Assembly (NCBI GenBank): GCA_027365385.1
Contig: DAHXNN010000022.1
Coordinates: 1-45,927, forward strand
Direction: 5' to 3'
DNA length: 45,927 nt
DNA from: Acidimicrobiaceae bacterium
GTDB lineage: Bacteria; Actinomycetota; Acidimicrobiia; Acidimicrobiales; Bog-793
Both the position numbers and the translations under genes were made by a program. Each line of letters begins with the position of its first letter. The stretch's first letter is position 1. Below the pieces are notes generated by a model that saw only the letters and a program-made list of their open reading frames with translations, ran no database searches and had not been told where the DNA came from. This document shows, in pieces, positions 26,805 to 39,381 of the stretch.

Positions 26805-26935
26805 TTGCCACCATCAAGAGCGGTCGAGGGACGGGCCCGTAGACGCCGCGGCAACCAGTGCAGGACGCGTGGAGCCGAGATGCGGCACGTGCGTGGTGCT
26901 CCAGGTGCCAATGCCCGAGCGATGAGAAGGAGACT
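26805..26935 (+). promoter_or_regulatory. SAM-I (S-box) class riboswitch, apparently with a short or absent P4 (SAM-I/IV-like)
   Basis: Conserved core elements occur in canonical order: AUCAAGAG (26813-20), CGGUCGAGGGAC, GGGCCCGUAGAC, GGCAACC (26850-56), GGUGCCAAUGCC (26904-15), GAUGAG (26921-26). These are followed at once by SD AAGGAG (26927-32) and GTG 26940. Confidence 0.8.
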
Positions 26936-26939
26936 CGCC

Positions 26940-28181
26940 GTGAGCTTCGTCGAAGGTCTGCGTTGCCGTGAGTGTGGCCGCGTCTATCCCGCCGCCGCAT
27001 CCCATGTGTGCGACTTCTGCTTCGGTCCCCTCGAGGTCGCCTACGACTACGAGGCAGTCGCGGCGAGCATCTCCCGGGAGAAGATCGCGGCGGGGCCGGC
27101 GACGATCTGGCGCTACGCGGACCTGCTCCCAGCGTCGGCCGAGTCCCCCGTCGAGCTCGGTGCGGGCTTCACGCCCCTCGTGCGGGCCGATCGCCTCGCT
27201 GCCGAGCTCGGCCTCGGTGAGCTCTACGTGAAGAACGACACCCGCAACCCGACAGGGTCGTTCAAGGACCGCGTCGTGTCCGTGGCCCTCACCAAGGCGC
27301 GCGAGCTCGGCTTCAAGATCGCCGCCTGCGCCTCCACCGGCAACCTCGCGAACTCCGTGGCGGCCCACGCGGCGCGCGCTGGCATGCAGTCCTACGTCTT
27401 CGTGCCGAAGGACCTCGAGCGCGTGAAGATCCAGACGACCGCTGTGTTCGGAGGCAACCTCATCGCCGTCGACGGCAACTACGACGACGTCAACCGCCTT
27501 TGCGCCGAGCTCGCCAGCGAGCACACGGACTGGGCGTTCGTCAACGTCAACGTCCGCCCCTACTACTCGGAGGGCTCGAAGACCCTCGCTTTCGAGGTCG
27601 CCGAACAGCTCGGATGGACAGTGCCGGACCACGTCGTGGTGCCGATCGCCTCCGGCAGCCAGCTCACCAAGATCCACAAAGGCTTCCACGAGCTCGGGCT
27701 CGTGGGCCTCGCAGACGGCGGCGACGGCGTGCGGATCTCCGGCGCGCAGACGGCTGGCTGCTCGCCGGTCGCGACGGCCTTCGCAGAAGGCTCCGACGTC
27801 GTGCGGCCCGTGCGCCCGGACACGATCGCGAAGTCGCTCGCGATCGGCAATCCTGCCGACGGCTACTACGCGCTCGGCGTGGTCCGCTCGAGCGGGGGCG
27901 CCATCGCCTCGGTGACCGACGACGAGATCGTCGAAGGCATGAGGCTGCTCGCCCGCACCGAAGGGATCTTCGCCGAGACCGCCGGCGGGGTGACGATCGC
28001 GACGCTCGCGAAGCTCGCCGCCGCCGGGATCGTCCGGCGCGACGAGCGCGTGGTCGCCTACGTCACCGGCACCGGGCTGAAGACCGTCGAGGCGCTCGGC
28101 GACACCGTCGGGCCGTCAGCTGTCATCGAGCCGACGCTCGAGGCATTCGCAGCGATCCAACAGGAAGGACTCATGAGATGA
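26940..28181 (+). CDS. threonine-synthase-family PLP enzyme with an N-terminal CxxC...CxxC zinc ribbon (candidate sulfur-carrier-dependent homocysteine synthase)
   Basis: LRCRECG...VCDFC ribbon, PLP-lysine motif NPTGSFKDR, ASTGN, fold-type-II body. GTG 26940 has the best SD; ATG 26880 and ATG 26922 are alternatives. Confidence 0.88.
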   Translation: MSFVEGLRCRECGRVYPAAASHVCDFCFGPLEVAYDYEAVAASISREKIAAGPATIWRYADLLPASAESPVELGAGFTPLVRADRLAAELGLGELYVKNDTRNPTGSFKDRVVSVALTKARELGFKIAACASTGNLANSVAAHAARAGMQSYVFVPKDLERVKIQTTAVFGGNLIAVDGNYDDVNRLCAELASEHTDWAFVNVNVRPYYSEGSKTLAFEVAEQLGWTVPDHVVVPIASGSQLTKIHKGFHELGLVGLADGGDGVRISGAQTAGCSPVATAFAEGSDVVRPVRPDTIAKSLAIGNPADGYYALGVVRSSGGAIASVTDDEIVEGMRLLARTEGIFAETAGGVTIATLAKLAAAGIVRRDERVVAYVTGTGLKTVEALGDTVGPSAVIEPTLEAFAAIQQEGLMR

Positions 28182-28453
28182 GCGTCTCCGTACGCATCCC
28201 GACCCAGCTTCGCCAGCTCACAGGCGGCTCCGGCGAGGTCGCCGTCGAGGCGGCCACGGTACGCGAGGCACTCGCCTCGCTCGACTCGCTCCATCCCGGC
28301 ATCGGCGAGAGGCTCCTCGACGACAACGGCGCCCTGCGCCGTTTCGTCAACTTGTTCCTGGCCGACGAGGACGTCCGCTTCCTCGAGGGGCTCGACACAC
28401 CCGTCAGCGACGGCCAGACCCTGTCCGTCGTGCCGGCGGTCGCCGGAGGCTGA
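28178..28453 (+). CDS. MoaD/ThiS/CysO-family ubiquitin-like sulfur carrier protein
   Basis: 91 aa ending ...LSVVPAVAGG*. The ATG overlaps the upstream stop (ATGA 28178-81). Confidence 0.85.
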   Translation: MSVSVRIPTQLRQLTGGSGEVAVEAATVREALASLDSLHPGIGERLLDDNGALRRFVNLFLADEDVRFLEGLDTPVSDGQTLSVVPAVAGG

Positions 28454-29621
28454 CGACCGCGAGCCCGACCGCGGCGGTGCCGAGCGCCGCTCCGAGAGCG
28501 GACACCCCCGCCCAGCCCGCACGCGCGTAGAGGAGCCCCGACAGCGCTGACGCGGCGGTGCCGCCGACGAAGTAGGAGACCATGTAGACCGCGTTGAGGC
28601 GCGCACCCGCGTCCGAGCGCAGCCGGTATATCTCGCTCTGGTTCGTGATCTGCATCCCCTGGGCGCCGACATCGAGGACGACGATCCCGACGACGAGCGC
28701 GGCGAGCGAGTGCGCTCCGACGTAGATCGGCAGGAACGACGACGCCAGGCACACAGCCGCGAACACGGTGAGCCGTGGCGCGTGCCCACGGTCCGCGAGC
28801 CGTCCCGCAAGGCTCGCCATGAGCGCTCCTGCGGCTCCCACCAGGCCAAACAACCCGATGCGGTCGACACCGTAGTGATAAGGCGCACCCGCGAGGAGGA
28901 ACGCCACGCACGTCCACAGCGTGCTGAAGCAGCCCATGCCGAGCGCGCCGAGCAGGGCGCGGCGCCGGAGCACGGGCTCGGTGCGCAACAGCTCGACGAG
29001 TGACGCGAGGAGCCGGGGGTAGGCAAGGCCGGAAGACGGGCGGAAGACGGGGAGCCGCGCACGGAGTGCGAGCGCCGTGCTCGCCATCGCCCCAGCGGCG
29101 AGGTAGAGGAGCACCCGCCAGCTTGACGCCCCGGCGACGAAGCCCGCGAAGGTCCGCGCGAGCAGAATCCCGAGAAGCAGCCCGCTCATCACCGATCCGA
29201 CGACGCGGCCGCGCTCGCGAGCCGGCGCGAGCGCGGCCGCGAACGGGACGAGCATCTGCGCGACGACCGCCGAGGCGCCGACAAGGAGGAGCCCAACGAG
29301 CAGCAGCACGAAGTCGGGTGCCGACGCGGCAGCGACGAGCGCTCCCGCGCACACCAGGGCCGTCGTGACCACGAGCTTCCTTCGCTCGACGAGGTCGGCC
29401 AAAGGCAGGAGCAGCGCTAGCCCGAGGACATAGCCGAGCTGCGTCGCCGTCGTCGCGAGCGCCGCCACGGCCGCCGGAACGTGGAAGTCGTGGCGCAGGA
29501 GGGGAAGCAGGGGTTGGAGGTAGTAGAGGTTCGCCACCGAGACGCCGACCGCCACAGCGAAGAGCGCGACAAGGCGCCCGCCGACCGCGGAGCCACCGGC
29601 TCCCACGTCGCGCTGGCCCAC
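28404..29621 (-). CDS. MFS transporter (12-TM type)
   Basis: Polytopic hydrophobic protein with the MFS motif LADLVERRK after TM2. GTG 29621 is chosen because upstream codons run into the groEL promoter and gene. The 3' end overlaps the convergent carrier gene by 50 nt. Confidence 0.8.
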   Translation of the reverse strand: MGQRDVGAGGSAVGGRLVALFAVAVGVSVANLYYLQPLLPLLRHDFHVPAAVAALATTATQLGYVLGLALLLPLADLVERRKLVVTTALVCAGALVAAASAPDFVLLLVGLLLVGASAVVAQMLVPFAAALAPARERGRVVGSVMSGLLLGILLARTFAGFVAGASSWRVLLYLAAGAMASTALALRARLPVFRPSSGLAYPRLLASLVELLRTEPVLRRRALLGALGMGCFSTLWTCVAFLLAGAPYHYGVDRIGLFGLVGAAGALMASLAGRLADRGHAPRLTVFAAVCLASSFLPIYVGAHSLAALVVGIVVLDVGAQGMQITNQSEIYRLRSDAGARLNAVYMVSYFVGGTAASALSGLLYARAGWAGVSALGAALGTAAVGLAVVSLRRPPARRTGSGRR

Positions 29622-29744: not shown

Positions 29745-31385
<1,641 letters not shown>

Positions 31386-31455
31386 AGCTCTCGAGCTCGG
31401 CGACGCTTCACGCCTCGCCGGCTCACACGCTCCAGCAGCACCGGACGGCAGCAAC

Positions 31456-31487
31456 GAAGACGGGTCGCCGCGAGGCGGCCCGTCTTC
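31456..31487 (+). terminator. stem-loop terminator downstream of groEL
   Basis: GAAGACGGGTCGCC-GCGA-GGCGGCCCGTCTTC forms a 14-bp stem (one G-U) with a 4-nt loop. There is no U-tract, as is common in high-GC actinobacteria. Confidence 0.6.
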
Positions 31488-31493
31488 GCGCCC

Positions 31494-31528
31494 GGGCGTC
31501 GGGCGTCGGGCGTCGGGCGTCGGGCGGC
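31494..31528. repeat. heptanucleotide tandem array (GGGCGTC)x4 plus one imperfect unit (GGGCGGC), immediately upstream of the chdC promoter -10
   Basis: Counted directly. The array ends 3 nt before TACACT (31532-37), which ends 6 nt before GTG 31544. Confidence 0.95.
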
Positions 31529-31543
31529 TCGTACACTGGCGCC

Positions 31544-32335
31544 GTGGGCGACGACGAGCAGAGACAGATGACCGAGCGGCGCGACGACGGCACGCACGAG
31601 CGTGCCAGGGTGCACGAGGACCAGACACCGCGAGCGGGCGTCGAATGGCCGGGGTGGAGCGTCCTGCACCTGTTCTGCACGGTCCGCCCGGATGTCGACG
31701 GCCACGCCGTCGAGCTCGCGGTCAAGCAATGCGAGGCGGACGGCCACCAGGTCGTGGCTGTCGCGATGCTCGGCCACAAGGCCGACCTCGGGATCGTCGC
31801 CCTCGGACCGTCGGCGGCACGCCTGCGGGCGCTGCAGACGGCTCTGAAGCGAGCAGGCTGCACGATCACCTACTCCTACGTCTCGCTCACGGAGGTGTCA
31901 GAGTACGCCCGTGGGATCCCCGAGCAGATGCGCGAGGCTCGCCTGCACCCGACGCTGCCGCCAGCGGGAATGAGCGCCTTCTGCTTCTACCCGATGTCGA
32001 AGCGGCGCCTCGGCGAGGAGAACTGGTACCAGCTGGACCACGAGGAGCGCCTTGCGCTCATGCACGGCCACGGTGCGTCCGGTCGGACCTTCCACGGCCG
32101 GGTCCTCCAGCTCATCACCGGCTCCACGGGCCTCGACGACTGGGAGTGGGGAGTGACGTTGTTCGCGACGAGCGCAGACGACCTGAAGGACTGCGTCTAC
32201 ACGATGCGCTTCGACGAGGCGTCGGCGCGCTACGCGGAGTTCGGCCCGTTCCTCACGGGAACCGTCGGTCCACTCCGCGAGGTCCTCGACGCGATCGGGC
32301 TCGACGCGATCGGGCCCGGCGGGGCGCTCTCGTGA
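31544..32335 (+). CDS. chdC: hydrogen-peroxide-dependent heme synthase (coproheme decarboxylase) ChdC/HemQ, chlorite-dismutase family
   Basis: GWSVLHLF, AFCFYPMSKRR, NWYQL..EER..LM..HG..GR and WEWGVTLFA are family patterns. ATG 31568 is an alternative start. Confidence 0.88.
   Translation: MGDDEQRQMTERRDDGTHERARVHEDQTPRAGVEWPGWSVLHLFCTVRPDVDGHAVELAVKQCEADGHQVVAVAMLGHKADLGIVALGPSAARLRALQTALKRAGCTITYSYVSLTEVSEYARGIPEQMREARLHPTLPPAGMSAFCFYPMSKRRLGEENWYQLDHEERLALMHGHGASGRTFHGRVLQLITGSTGLDDWEWGVTLFATSADDLKDCVYTMRFDEASARYAEFGPFLTGTVGPLREVLDAIGLDAIGPGGALS
32286..32315 (+). repeat. 15-nt perfect in-frame tandem duplication (TCGACGCGATCGGGC x2) encoding LDAIG-LDAIG at the ChdC C-terminus
   Basis: Read directly: 32286-32300 is identical to 32301-32315. 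Confidence 0.9.
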
Positions 32336-33273
32336 GCGCCGCAGGAGCGCCGCCAGCCGGCGCAGAGGCCGTGATCTGGGCCCGCGAGACGGACTCGCAA
32401 GGACGGCTCGGTCGCCTCGTGGACGTGCTCGAGCTCCTGGGTCCGGTCGTCGTGGCCTTCTCCGGTGGAGCTGACTCGACGCTCCTCGCCGTCGTGGCCA
32501 CGCGCGTCCTCGGCCGGGACCTCGTGCACTGCGTCACGGCCGACTCGGCCTCGCTCGCCCCCGAGGAGCTCGCCGACTGCGAAGCGCTCGCAACCGAGTG
32601 GGACCTTCGCTGGAGCGCTCTCGGCACGTCCGAGCTCGAGGACCCGTCCTACGTGGCGAACGGGCTCGACCGTTGCTATCACTGCAAGAACGAGCTCATG
32701 ACGACTCTCGCGCCGGTCGCCGTGGACGAGGGAGGGACCGTCGTGCTCGGGGTGAACCTCGACGACCTCGGCGACCACCGTCCGGGCCAGAGAGCTGCAG
32801 CCGAGCGCGGGGCGGCGTTCCCTCTCGTGGACGCGGGGCTGACGAAGTCGGACGTTCGCGCGTTGTCACGCATCCTCGGCCTACGGACCTGGGACAAGCC
32901 GGCGGCCGCCTGCCTCGCATCGCGCGTGCCGCACGGCACCGCAGTCTCGGCCGAGCTGCTCGGGCAGGTCGCCCGAGCGGAGTCTGCGCTGCGCAGGCTC
33001 GGGTTCCAGAGCCTGCGGGTCCGCCACTACGGCGACACCGCCCGCCTCGAGGTGGAGCTCGCCGACCTCTCCCACGTCGTGGAGCTTCGTGAGCGGGTCG
33101 TCGGTGCCGTGCACGGTGCCGGCTACCGCTACGTCACGGTCGATCTCGAGGGGCTCCGCTCCGGCAACGTCTCGCGTGCCGCTCTCGACGACGAGCGGGC
33201 TCGTGGCGCGTCACCGGGTGCCTCCCCGACGGGCGTGAGCGCGTCGGTCTCCATCCTCGGCACGCGGAGATGA
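32332..33273 (+). CDS. larE: LarE-like PP-loop ATP-dependent sulfur transferase (TIGR00268-type)
   Basis: PP-loop VVAFSGGADS, three conserved Cys (DRCYHCK and AACLASR), C-terminal ARLE...TVDLEG. GTG 32332 overlaps the chdC stop (GTGA). Confidence 0.75.
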   Translation: MSAAGAPPAGAEAVIWARETDSQGRLGRLVDVLELLGPVVVAFSGGADSTLLAVVATRVLGRDLVHCVTADSASLAPEELADCEALATEWDLRWSALGTSELEDPSYVANGLDRCYHCKNELMTTLAPVAVDEGGTVVLGVNLDDLGDHRPGQRAAAERGAAFPLVDAGLTKSDVRALSRILGLRTWDKPAAACLASRVPHGTAVSAELLGQVARAESALRRLGFQSLRVRHYGDTARLEVELADLSHVVELRERVVGAVHGAGYRYVTVDLEGLRSGNVSRAALDDERARGASPGASPTGVSASVSILGTRR

Positions 33274-33506
33274 AGATCCGGGTCCGGCTCGTCTTCCCGG
33301 ACGCCTTGGTGCGCGAGCCCGTCATCGCCCGCCTCGCGAGAGACTACGCGGTCGAGCCCAACATACGTCGTGCGGCCGTCGAGGAGGACTCCGGCTGGAT
33401 CGTGTGCGAGCTCGCCGGCGAGACGAGCTCGGTGAACAGCGCTCTGGCGTGGCTCGCCGACACAGGAGTGAGCGTCGAGAGGCTCGGCGACGTCGTCGAG
33501 AGCTGA
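33270..33506 (+). CDS. stand-alone NIL domain protein
   Basis: 78 aa. IRVRLVFPDALVREPVIARLARDYAVEPNIRRAAVEEDSGWIVCELAG...ALAWLADTGVSVERLG follows the NIL pattern seen in the MetN C-terminal domain. ATGA overlap with the larE-like stop. Confidence 0.75.
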   Translation: MKIRVRLVFPDALVREPVIARLARDYAVEPNIRRAAVEEDSGWIVCELAGETSSVNSALAWLADTGVSVERLGDVVES

Positions 33507-33525
33507 CCGCCGTCGGTCAGCTCTC
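33498..33525. terminator. bidirectional stem-loop containing both convergent stop codons
   Basis: GAGAGCTGACC-GCCGTC-GGTCAGCTCTC is a perfect 11-bp inverted repeat. The + strand TGA (33504-06) and the - strand stop (33517-19) lie in opposite arms. Confidence 0.6.
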
Positions 33526-33720
33526 CGGGGCGCCGCCGGAGATGTCGGGGTCGCCGACGTGCCATCCGGCGGTCGAGGTCGAGCGCCGCTCGTAGAACAC
33601 GCACCCGTCGGGGCAGGCGAACGGGACTGCAGAGCTCGCGCCGAGCCGGCACTGCTCGACGCGATCGCCCGAGCGGACGGTCTGCATGACGTAGTGACGG
33701 CAGTCGGCGCGGGCAGCCAT
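33517..33720 (-). CDS. 67-aa four-cysteine miniprotein (hypothetical; possible metal/Fe-S binding)
   Basis: MAARADCRHYVMQTVRSGDRVEQCRLGASSAVPFACPDGCVFYE... has exactly four Cys, ending in a CPDGC pair. Start is ATG 33720, or ATG 33738 six codons upstream. Confidence 0.5.
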   Translation of the reverse strand: MAARADCRHYVMQTVRSGDRVEQCRLGASSAVPFACPDGCVFYERRSTSTAGWHVGDPDISGGAPES

Positions 33721-33764
33721 GGCTCCATGGTCGCGCACCAGGCGGGCCGGGTAGCGTCGCGCAG

Positions 33765-34484
33765 GTGACAGGGGAGCCGGTAGCCGTCCGCGACCTGCTC
33801 CGCTGGAGCGAGACGCTCGCGGCGATCGCCCGGACGGGCATCGGGTTCACCTCGAGCACCTACGAGCGGGAGCGCTACGAAGAGGTCCTCGCCGTCGCCG
33901 CGGAGATCTCCTGGGACGCCCGGCATCGCCTCGCGACCGCCGGCCATCGACCTCCCGCCGACGATCCGGCGCAGCTCGTGCAGGAGTGGCTCGCCGACGT
34001 GCGACCTGGGGTGGCGGGCTACGTCACGCCGAGGCTTTCCGTCGGTGCGATCGTCGGCAACGACGCCCGCGAGATCCTCCTCGTCCAGCGGCGCGACTCG
34101 GGCGTCTGGCTCTACCCGACGGGCTGGGCGGACGTCGGCTACTCCGCCTCGGAGGTCGCCGTGAAGGAGGTCGCCGAAGAAGCCGGGCTCGCCGTCGAGC
34201 CCGTGCGCCTCGTCATGGTGCTCGACGGGCTGCGGCTCGGCTTCTCCCGCAGCCCGATCTACTCGCTCGTTTTCCACTGCCGCCTCACGGGGCCGGCCGC
34301 CGAGATCCGCCCACACCCTCTCGAGTGCGCGGCAGCCGCGTGGTTCCCTCGGGACCGCCTGCCGTCGCCCCTCGCGGGCGCACGAGGCTGGGCGGAGCGC
34401 GCTTTCGACGCGATCGACGGCAAGGCTGTCGAGGTGCTCTTCGACGTGCCCCGAGCTCCGTCGTGGCGCCGCGACGACGCCTAG
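33765..34484 (+). CDS. NUDIX hydrolase with an N-terminal Nudix_N_2-type helical domain
   Basis: The Nudix box region GWADVGYSASEVAVKEVAEEAGL (GX5EX7REUXEEXGU-like) is preceded by LLRWSETLAAIARTGIGFTSSTYERERYEEV. Confidence 0.82.
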   Translation: MTGEPVAVRDLLRWSETLAAIARTGIGFTSSTYERERYEEVLAVAAEISWDARHRLATAGHRPPADDPAQLVQEWLADVRPGVAGYVTPRLSVGAIVGNDAREILLVQRRDSGVWLYPTGWADVGYSASEVAVKEVAEEAGLAVEPVRLVMVLDGLRLGFSRSPIYSLVFHCRLTGPAAEIRPHPLECAAAAWFPRDRLPSPLAGARGWAERAFDAIDGKAVEVLFDVPRAPSWRRDDA

Positions 34485-39320: not shown

Positions 39321-39358
39321 GGCACCGCCCCGCCGGCTGTTGCCGGCGGGGCGGTGCC
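39321..39358. terminator. bidirectional terminator hairpin between convergent gltA and rlmB
   Basis: GGCACCGCCCCGCCGGC-TGTT-GCCGGCGGGGCGGTGCC is a perfect 17-bp GC-rich stem with a 4-nt loop. Confidence 0.75.
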
Positions 39359-39381
39359 GCGTCCAGACCGCGGCGGCAGGC

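Follow-up and report, generated by a model that had tools for sequence, protein, structure and literature searches.

A predicted [4Fe-4S]-type LarE recurs with a translationally coupled NIL-domain protein in Acidimicrobiia

We analysed a 45,927-nucleotide contig of an Acidimicrobiaceae bacterium (DAHXNN010000022.1 of assembly GCA_027365385.1; 71% G+C), which is called the window throughout. The subject is larE, a gene for a PP-loop sulfur insertase, which lies between chdC and a gene for a small NIL-domain protein, and is followed by a convergent gene for a miniprotein with four cysteines (4-Cys). The genes and features of this region are as follows.

31544..32335, + strand: chdC, coproheme decarboxylase-like protein of the Chlor_dismutase family, 263 amino acids (alternative ATG start at 31568)
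32332..33273, + strand: larE, ATP-dependent PP-loop sulfur insertase of predicted [4Fe-4S] (tri-Cys) type, 313 amino acids
33270..33506, + strand: stand-alone NIL-domain protein, 78 amino acids; its start overlaps the larE stop (ATGA)
33485..33538, no strand: hairpin region between the convergent NIL and 4-Cys genes
33517..33720, - strand: 4-Cys miniprotein, 67 amino acids from ATG (73 amino acids from the GTG at 33738)
33765..34484, + strand: Nudix hydrolase (Nudix_N + NUDIX), divergent to the 4-Cys gene

The initial annotation had described chdC, larE and NIL as chained by four-nucleotide overlaps, and both overlaps are present: the chdC stop and the larE GTG share GTGA at 32332-32335, and the larE stop and the NIL ATG share ATGA at 33270-33273. 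The identities that it gave to the three genes were borne out by Pfam and NCBIfam matches (Chlor_dismutase, 158 bits; LarE TIGR00268, 287 bits; NIL, 60 bits). Third-position GC was 0.86-0.90 in all four open reading frames (chdC, larE, NIL and 4-Cys), which is a coding signal. The GTG at 32332 is a putative start of larE, the spacing between chdC and larE being -20 to +54 nucleotides in relatives.

Against the TIGR00268 equivalog model, LarE scored 287.3 bits (cut-off 150), and the next best family reached 29 bits. Its best match among solved structures was LarE of Lactiplantibacillus plantarum (5udq; 2e-45) over residues 28-284; the [4Fe-4S] LarE of Methanococcus maripaludis (8cnz) matched at 4e-12. 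The alignment with both enzymes covers the whole catalytic body. The PP-loop S44-G-G-A-D-S49 was invariant in 25 relatives. This SGGADS loop and the CYHC and ACLASR motifs are present as first described, but the three cysteines counted then are in fact five (C67, C83, C115, C118 and C194), all of them invariant in the 25 relatives. C115, C118 and C194 align to the CxxC...C tri-cysteine motif of 8cnz and to the positions given in PMC9283937, in agreement with the earlier suggestion that the enzyme is of the Cys-ligated Fe-S type. C67 and C83 (window 32530-32580) lie outside the cluster motif, and were found in every one of the 25 aligned Acidimicrobiia sequences.

We also compared the residues around the cofactor site with those of characterized enzymes. 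Cys115 and Cys118 stand where the sacrificial enzyme has Trp and Ala, and Cys194 follows the position of L. plantarum Cys176 by one residue, which is the pattern of cluster-type LarE (cluster Cys one residue past the Cys176 position; PMC9283937). S197, R229 and R231 are the counterparts of L. plantarum S180, R212 and R214, the proposed phosphate site for P2CMN, a pyridinium mononucleotide with carboxylic acid groups at positions 3 and 5 (PMC9283937), and are invariant in the 25 relatives. The L. plantarum enzyme has no CxxC motif and donates the sulfur of Cys176, whereas here that position is an Ala, directly followed by the cluster Cys. With the [4Fe-4S] LarE proteins of Thermotoga maritima (PMC9283937) and M. 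maripaludis, our protein has in common the SGGxDS PP-loop, the Ser/Arg/Arg phosphate site and the CxxC...C ligands, shifted by one residue from the L. plantarum Cys176 position, as well as a similar length and domain order. It differs from them in the two extra invariant cysteines, C67 and C83, in having chdC on its 5' side and a translationally coupled NIL gene on its 3' side, and in that larB and larC do not adjoin larE. By its residues the larE product is an ordinary [4Fe-4S]-type LarE, for which an Fe-S cluster and conversion of P2CMN to the bisthiocarboxylic mononucleotide (P2TMN) are predicted.

Next, we looked at how often larE is accompanied by the NIL gene. A scan of one genome per species with the LarE alignment gave 80 Acidimicrobiia loci, in which LarE is 59-69% identical. 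NIL lies directly downstream of larE in 28 of the 72 evaluable species, and the four-nucleotide overlap is kept in 27 of these 28. Both chdC and NIL adjoin larE in 24/69 species, chdC only in 10/69 and NIL only in 2/69; the gene order of the module is thus conserved among relatives. As the converse test, we scanned metagenomes with the NIL alignment, and 63 of the 70 evaluable NIL loci had larE directly upstream (59 flagged by script; L103, L107, L164 and L167 added by eye from tblastn start offsets). The seven exceptions comprise six members of a subclade of 83-residue NIL proteins and one contig from which larE is deleted. In locus L175 (71% G+C), the LarE that precedes NIL shares only 48% identity with ours and scores 272 bits on TIGR00268, and the two genes overlap by TGATG. 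The pair is also kept without chdC (L018 and L027).

The 27/28 overlaps, the 63/70 loci and L175 establish that LarE-NIL is a real and recurrent pair. The literature search returned no paper pairing LarE with a NIL domain or with ChdC/HemQ, in line with the initial annotation, which could assign the arrangement to no described pathway. No paper on Acidimicrobiia with the nickel-pincer cofactor was found either, and only three distinct works that mention the NIL domain came up. What is new is the conserved pair; LarE itself is known. The module could also be a stable operon of unrelated housekeeping genes, in which NIL regulates something else behind larE. This is unlikely in our view. Overlaps of four nucleotides are common in high-GC operons, chdC adjoins larE in only 50% of cases, and NIL can be found without larE beside dnaK and, on one contig, straight after chdC. 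However, 90% of the closest NIL homologs follow larE, the overlap is kept almost throughout (27/28 species), and the pair persists both where chdC is absent (L018, L027) and where LarE has diverged to 48% identity.

We then searched for the enzymes that act before and after LarE in the nickel-pincer pathway. A tblastn search for LarB with Escherichia coli PurE as the seed against the 1.85 Mb of fetched loci returned nothing; this was a false negative, as LarB was later found via LarC. For LarC, all fetched loci were searched for the N-terminal motif G-I/V-A-G-D-M, followed by confirmation with NCBIfam models, and LarC-like open reading frames were observed in nine genome loci. They score 178-188 bits on TIGR00299 (cut-off 90), and their LarC2 domain 110-112 bits on NF052512 (cut-off 50). 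The gene just upstream of larC encodes LarB (NF033503, 184-222 bits; cut-off 175). By tblastn, the larB-larC pair is present in all nine loci (L017, L019, L032, L034, L041, L068, L080, L088 and L091; for example, L088:15333-17623, - strand), 5-9 kb downstream of larE on the opposite strand, and all nine species fall within the 24 that carry the full chdC-larE-NIL module. In these genomes, then, LarE of this module occurs alongside the two enzymes that supply its substrate and complete its product. The pair is flanked by an HNH/DUF222 gene and a gene read by eye as a prephenate dehydratase gene (pheA).

The TIGR00268 score, the retained PP-loop, cluster ligands and phosphate residues, and the larB-larC pair in relatives together indicate that LarE is ordinary. 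The initial annotation had reasoned from the lack of lar partners in the window that the probable target of thiolation is not the nickel-pincer precursor. That reasoning is not supported: LarE keeps every defining feature that was tested, larB-larC lies 5-9 kb from the same module in nine relatives, and this genome was read for 45.9 kb. A finding of lar genes elsewhere, which the annotation itself had named as counting against it, was thus made in relatives. Across LarE genes overall, roughly half lie next to a gene for LarC or LarB (PMC13329287), and the scattered layout here is less usual, not odd. We expect larB and larC elsewhere in this genome, outside the 45.9 kb. A normal LarE, rather than one with a new substrate, lowers the value of that first claim.

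At a probability of about 0.6, we favour the reading that this is a regular [4Fe-4S] LarE of the nickel-pincer pathway with a dedicated, translationally coupled NIL partner, and that chdC and the 4-Cys gene stand outside this function. By homology to the T. maritima and M. maripaludis enzymes, Cys115, Cys118 and Cys194 would bind a cluster whose open iron carries a non-core sulfide, and this sulfide would replace the oxygen. LarB and LarC, presumably encoded elsewhere in the genome, would make the substrate and insert nickel, and the 78-residue NIL protein would be a small protein dedicated to LarE and translationally coupled to it.

Several observations weigh against this reading. In 33 of the 69 species larE has neither chdC nor NIL beside it, so NIL is not needed for LarE function in general. 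The 83-residue NIL subclade (∼60% identical; L006, L007, L100, L102, L108, L109, L116 and L119) is not beside larE and, where a long contig was available, lies divergent from a dnaK-grpE-dnaJ-hspR operon. At L105:4200-5234, chdC is followed after ∼130 nucleotides by NIL, and larE is missing. None of larB, larC and larA is within the 45.9-kb window, as had been stated from the start, and no LarA homolog was seen among the neighbours checked near larB-larC of the relatives. Four public sequencing runs (library type unrecorded) gave flat, DNA-like depth over the locus. The L105 junction possibly contains a few-codon remnant of larE that still ends in the ATGA overlap.

The NIL protein scored 60.2 bits against Pfam NIL (PF09383; cut-off 24). 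It was confirmed to be a stand-alone domain, as initially annotated, with no attached ABC ATPase or ferredoxin. Its AlphaFold2 model (predicted local distance difference test score, pLDDT, 92.7) superposes on the C2 domain of MetN (3tui_C) with a TM-score of 0.90 and a root-mean-square deviation of 0.9 Å, and by this model the protein may be an ACT-like ligand-binding module of the MetN C2 fold. The two have in common the beta-alpha-beta-beta-alpha-beta fold, with 31% identity. N31, conserved at ≥90%, aligns without gaps with MetN N295; NIL domains bind methionine in MetN, and in the N295A variant L-methionine binding was undetectable (PMC6233128). In contrast to the MetN domain, which is the tail of an ABC ATPase, the protein here is free and has LarE as its genomic partner. 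A Thr of MetN is replaced in it by Cys46, which is invariant. Cys46 was considered as a persulfide carrier and set aside, the LarE-linked NIL of L175 and most family members being without this Cys.

NIL domains have also been reported to regulate a methanogen homocysteine enzyme (PMC12068725; PMC5764234), and some NIL homologs carry the Joint Genome Institute name NIL-ferredoxin subunit of L-aspartate-semialdehyde sulfurtransferase. In that subunit (MA1822) NIL is attached to a sulfur-transfer enzyme; our protein, unlike MA1822, lacks a ferredoxin domain, and its neighbourhood showed no COG1900/DUF39 partner. Most likely, the NIL protein would act as a sensor of methionine or sulfur status, or link LarE with the donor of its sulfur. 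It may be a ligand-sensing or docking module of sulfur-transfer systems that became attached to LarE in Acidimicrobiia, or else be tied to the in vivo sulfur donor of the cluster-type LarE.

We extended the analysis to the wider family of small NIL proteins. An exhaustive profile search gave 1256 representatives at E ≤ 0.001, mostly of 75-95 amino acids, and partners were surveyed for the best 150 of them. MetO-like ThiS proteins ending in AGG are fused to NIL in P0460, P0461 and P0365, and ThiS in P0373 and P0447. A ThiF C-terminus is fused to NIL in P0387, and in P0405 a JAB (Mec-like) domain, with CysK, 3'-phosphoadenosine-5'-phosphosulfate reductase and a ThiS-like carrier on the same contig. 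In P0362 a threonine-synthase-like protein occurs with NIL, in a metM-NIL-metO operon (locus L177). The MetO-NIL and JAB-NIL fusions are present on several independent contigs, and no such NIL architecture was found in the literature searched. In the carrier fusions, NIL follows the Gly-Gly; loci L174 and L177 also belong to this set of NIL architectures. These distant NILs score 68-83 bits on the profile against >100 bits for the LarE-linked ones, so their tie to the latter is one of family resemblance only. The distant partners ThiS/MetO, ThiF, JAB and MetM are hints that point to sulfur supply or methionine sensing.

To our knowledge, the sulfur route of the non-sacrificial LarE is known so far only from an in vitro reaction with IscS. 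Tentatively, the NIL protein could be a LarE subunit that ties nickel-pincer sulfur insertion to ThiS/MetO, either by docking a thiocarboxylated carrier or by gating the reaction in response to methionine or sulfur status. The in vivo sulfur route of the non-sacrificial enzymes would thereby be named, and the LarE-NIL pair is a concrete candidate in the search for the physiological sulfur donor of [4Fe-4S] LarE. Its coupling across many Acidimicrobiia and at least one distant lineage is a comparative-genomics lead.

A different role for NIL would be that of a carrier or chaperone, through which LarE would pass a labile intermediate or the completed cofactor on to LarC or to a user protein other than LarA. 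A small ligand-binding fold produced in step with LarE would suit such a role, and no LarA was seen near larB-larC. About 15% of genomes carry larB, larC and larE without larA, and another cofactor-binding protein is being sought (PMC11796402). Acidimicrobiia, with larB, larC and larE and no larA seen in the regions examined, can be added to that group. We consider the carrier role rather improbable, however, as the retained methionine-binding Asn points to an amino-acid-type ligand, most Acidimicrobiia larE genes have no NIL neighbour, and the distant NILs accompany ThiS-type systems and not lar genes.

The sulfur-carrier operon with a S-adenosylmethionine (SAM) riboswitch that the initial annotation had placed near the module is of the metM-metO type, 4 kb upstream. 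The flanking features are listed below.

26808..26928, + strand: SAM-I riboswitch (Rfam RF00162, 47.9 bits; gathering score 44.4)
26941..28181 (approximate), + strand: metM-like threonine-synthase homolog (PALP/thrC models), with a probable GTG start after AAGGAG
28178..28453, + strand: metO-like ThiS/MoaD sulfur carrier with a Gly-Gly end; ATGA overlap with metM
Between the metO-like gene and groEL, - strand: major facilitator superfamily (MFS) gene
29760-31385, + strand: groEL
3' of the Nudix gene: PAC2 gene (- strand), then a GNAT gene

A SAM riboswitch, a thrC-like gene and a Gly-Gly carrier gene with the ATGA overlap are the features of a MetM/MetO operon, and the riboswitch is also present in the relative L021. 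MetM/MetO is a thiocarboxylate route to homocysteine, and MetM proteins frequently go under the wrong name of threonine synthase (preprint 10.1101/2024.10.14.618325). The riboswitch aptamer ends at 26928 inside the AAGGAG Shine-Dalgarno sequence before the GTG at 26941 (window 26922-26943), which suggests translational control of the metM-like gene. Acidimicrobium ferrooxidans is without a known homocysteine route (Price et al., PMC5764234), and an operon of this type is a candidate for the missing route.

In many relatives, metM-metO lies 3-4 kb upstream of larE. Such proximity, the absence of lar partner genes from the window, the methionine binding and homocysteine-enzyme regulation by NIL domains (PMC6233128; PMC12068725), and the distant small NILs fused or adjacent to MetO-like ThiS, ThiF, JAB and MetM would all suit a LarE that functions outside the nickel-pincer pathway and transfers sulfur to another carboxylate; it might, for instance, make or use the MetO thiocarboxylate for homocysteine synthesis, with NIL as a methionine sensor. 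The possibility that LarE replaces MoeZ on MetO was downgraded once larB-larC had been found in relatives. We regard a function outside the pathway as quite improbable: larB-larC is near the same module in nine relatives, the residues of the P2CMN phosphate site are invariant, and the known MetO pathway makes its thiocarboxylate via MoeZ (preprint 10.1101/2024.10.14.618325). Moreover, metM-metO was not found in the fetched upstream flank (≤10 kb) of several module-bearing relatives, seven of the nine larB-larC species among them. The proximity of metM-metO to larE was treated as synteny.

ChdC scored 158.4 bits on Pfam PF06778 (Chlor_dismutase), and was below the NCBIfam equivalog cut-offs (PRK12276, 206.6 against 253; HemQ_actino, 52.2 against 235). 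It is thus unlike the actinobacterial HemQ model (52 bits) despite its actinobacterial host. The best solved relatives are Geobacillus HemQ (1t0t; 1e-45), the Thermus protein 1vdh (TT1485) and Listeria ChdC. Its CFYPMSKRR, GHG and VLQLITGS segments align with 1t0t, 1vdh and 9t54. The Tyr-Pro-Met-x-Lys motif has its counterpart in Firmicutes ChdC/HemQ (Geobacillus 1t0t, Listeria 5loq), as do the proximal His and the Gln, whereas the score here stays below the equivalog cut-offs. We take Tyr-Pro-Met-x-Lys to be the catalytic Tyr/Lys motif, the His to be proximal and the Gln to be distal. Judged by these residues, chdC probably encodes an active coproheme decarboxylase; in about half of the class it would be on one transcript with larE. 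The called genes between ∼10 kb upstream of NIL and the 3' end of the window include no other gene of the coproporphyrin pathway.

The tight coupling of chdC to larE holds at this locus, with its four-nucleotide overlap, and does not hold as a rule: chdC is directly upstream of larE in 38 of 76 evaluable Acidimicrobiia species, with junctions of -20 to +54 nucleotides. The adjacency is frequent and dispensable. These 38 cases, with their short or overlapping junctions, are what would favour a joint action of ChdC and LarE on a tetrapyrrole carboxylate, or a coordination of heme and nickel-pincer synthesis. We find this very hard to credit, as ChdC keeps all residues for ordinary coproheme decarboxylation, LarE keeps its mononucleotide phosphate site, the genes are apart in half of the class, and no paper was found that treats LarE together with coproheme decarboxylase, HemQ or ChdC.

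A 15-nucleotide tandem duplication, CTCGACGCGATCGGG x2 (window 32285-32314), gives LDAIG-LDAIG in the ChdC tail, and one copy of it is absent in the related strain of run X25. In runs X3, X4 and X5, position 31581 is followed by an inserted CGA. A TACACT box lies 7 nucleotides before the chdC GTG, and chdC may be leaderless. Upstream of it, groEL is followed by a 15-bp hairpin (31455-31469/31474-31488) and then by four copies of the heptamer CGGGCGT (31493-31520).

The convergent 67-residue protein with exactly four cysteines was confirmed as the product of a real, conserved gene. It is 44-80% identical in relatives, with four invariant Cys in the motif DCRHY..E.CR..P-F-x-CPxxCxFxExR..GW. Homologs are only from Acidimicrobiales/Actinomycetota, all of them named hypothetical, and there is no Pfam family. 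Its structure model (pLDDT 45.6) was unusable, and a profile search of solved structures gave a segment of sulfite-reductase ferredoxin at an insignificant E = 0.12. The gene forms a divergent pair with the Nudix gene (26-44 nucleotides between starts), which is inverted in place in L022 and L076, moved by 6-10 kb in L016, L040 and L056, and present in L006, where larE is absent. As the two genes invert and relocate together, the 4-Cys gene belongs with the Nudix gene and faces NIL through local synteny only; it is not a part of the LarE module.

The hairpin that embeds both stop codons is present, and its perfect core is 12 bp long and not 11 bp as initially described (33498-33509/33514-33525; four-nucleotide loop CCGT; arms of 25 nucleotides, 80% complementary). 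The stem holds the NIL stop TGA (33504-33506) and the 4-Cys stop (33517-33519). The window has three perfect 12-bp hairpin sites (the other two at 29207-29240 and 39324-39360), compared with 0.1 expected in shuffles. There is no T-run beside this hairpin on either strand, so that it fails as a canonical intrinsic terminator, and consensus promoter and terminator scans of 31300-33900 gave no match. In many relatives the NIL/4-Cys junction has stable hairpins of differing sequence, which fits a two-way transcription stop, and the element is probably a two-way terminator without a U-tract.

The nearest relatives of the window are Acidimicrobiia/Acidimicrobiales genomes assembled from metagenomes. 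In a contig index, an identical NIL protein is on record, for example in GCA_027313905.1, where the order of the genes is also the same, and the window LarE and one other window protein had no identical product. The public runs that contain the region are mainly acid-mine-drainage and sediment metagenomes.

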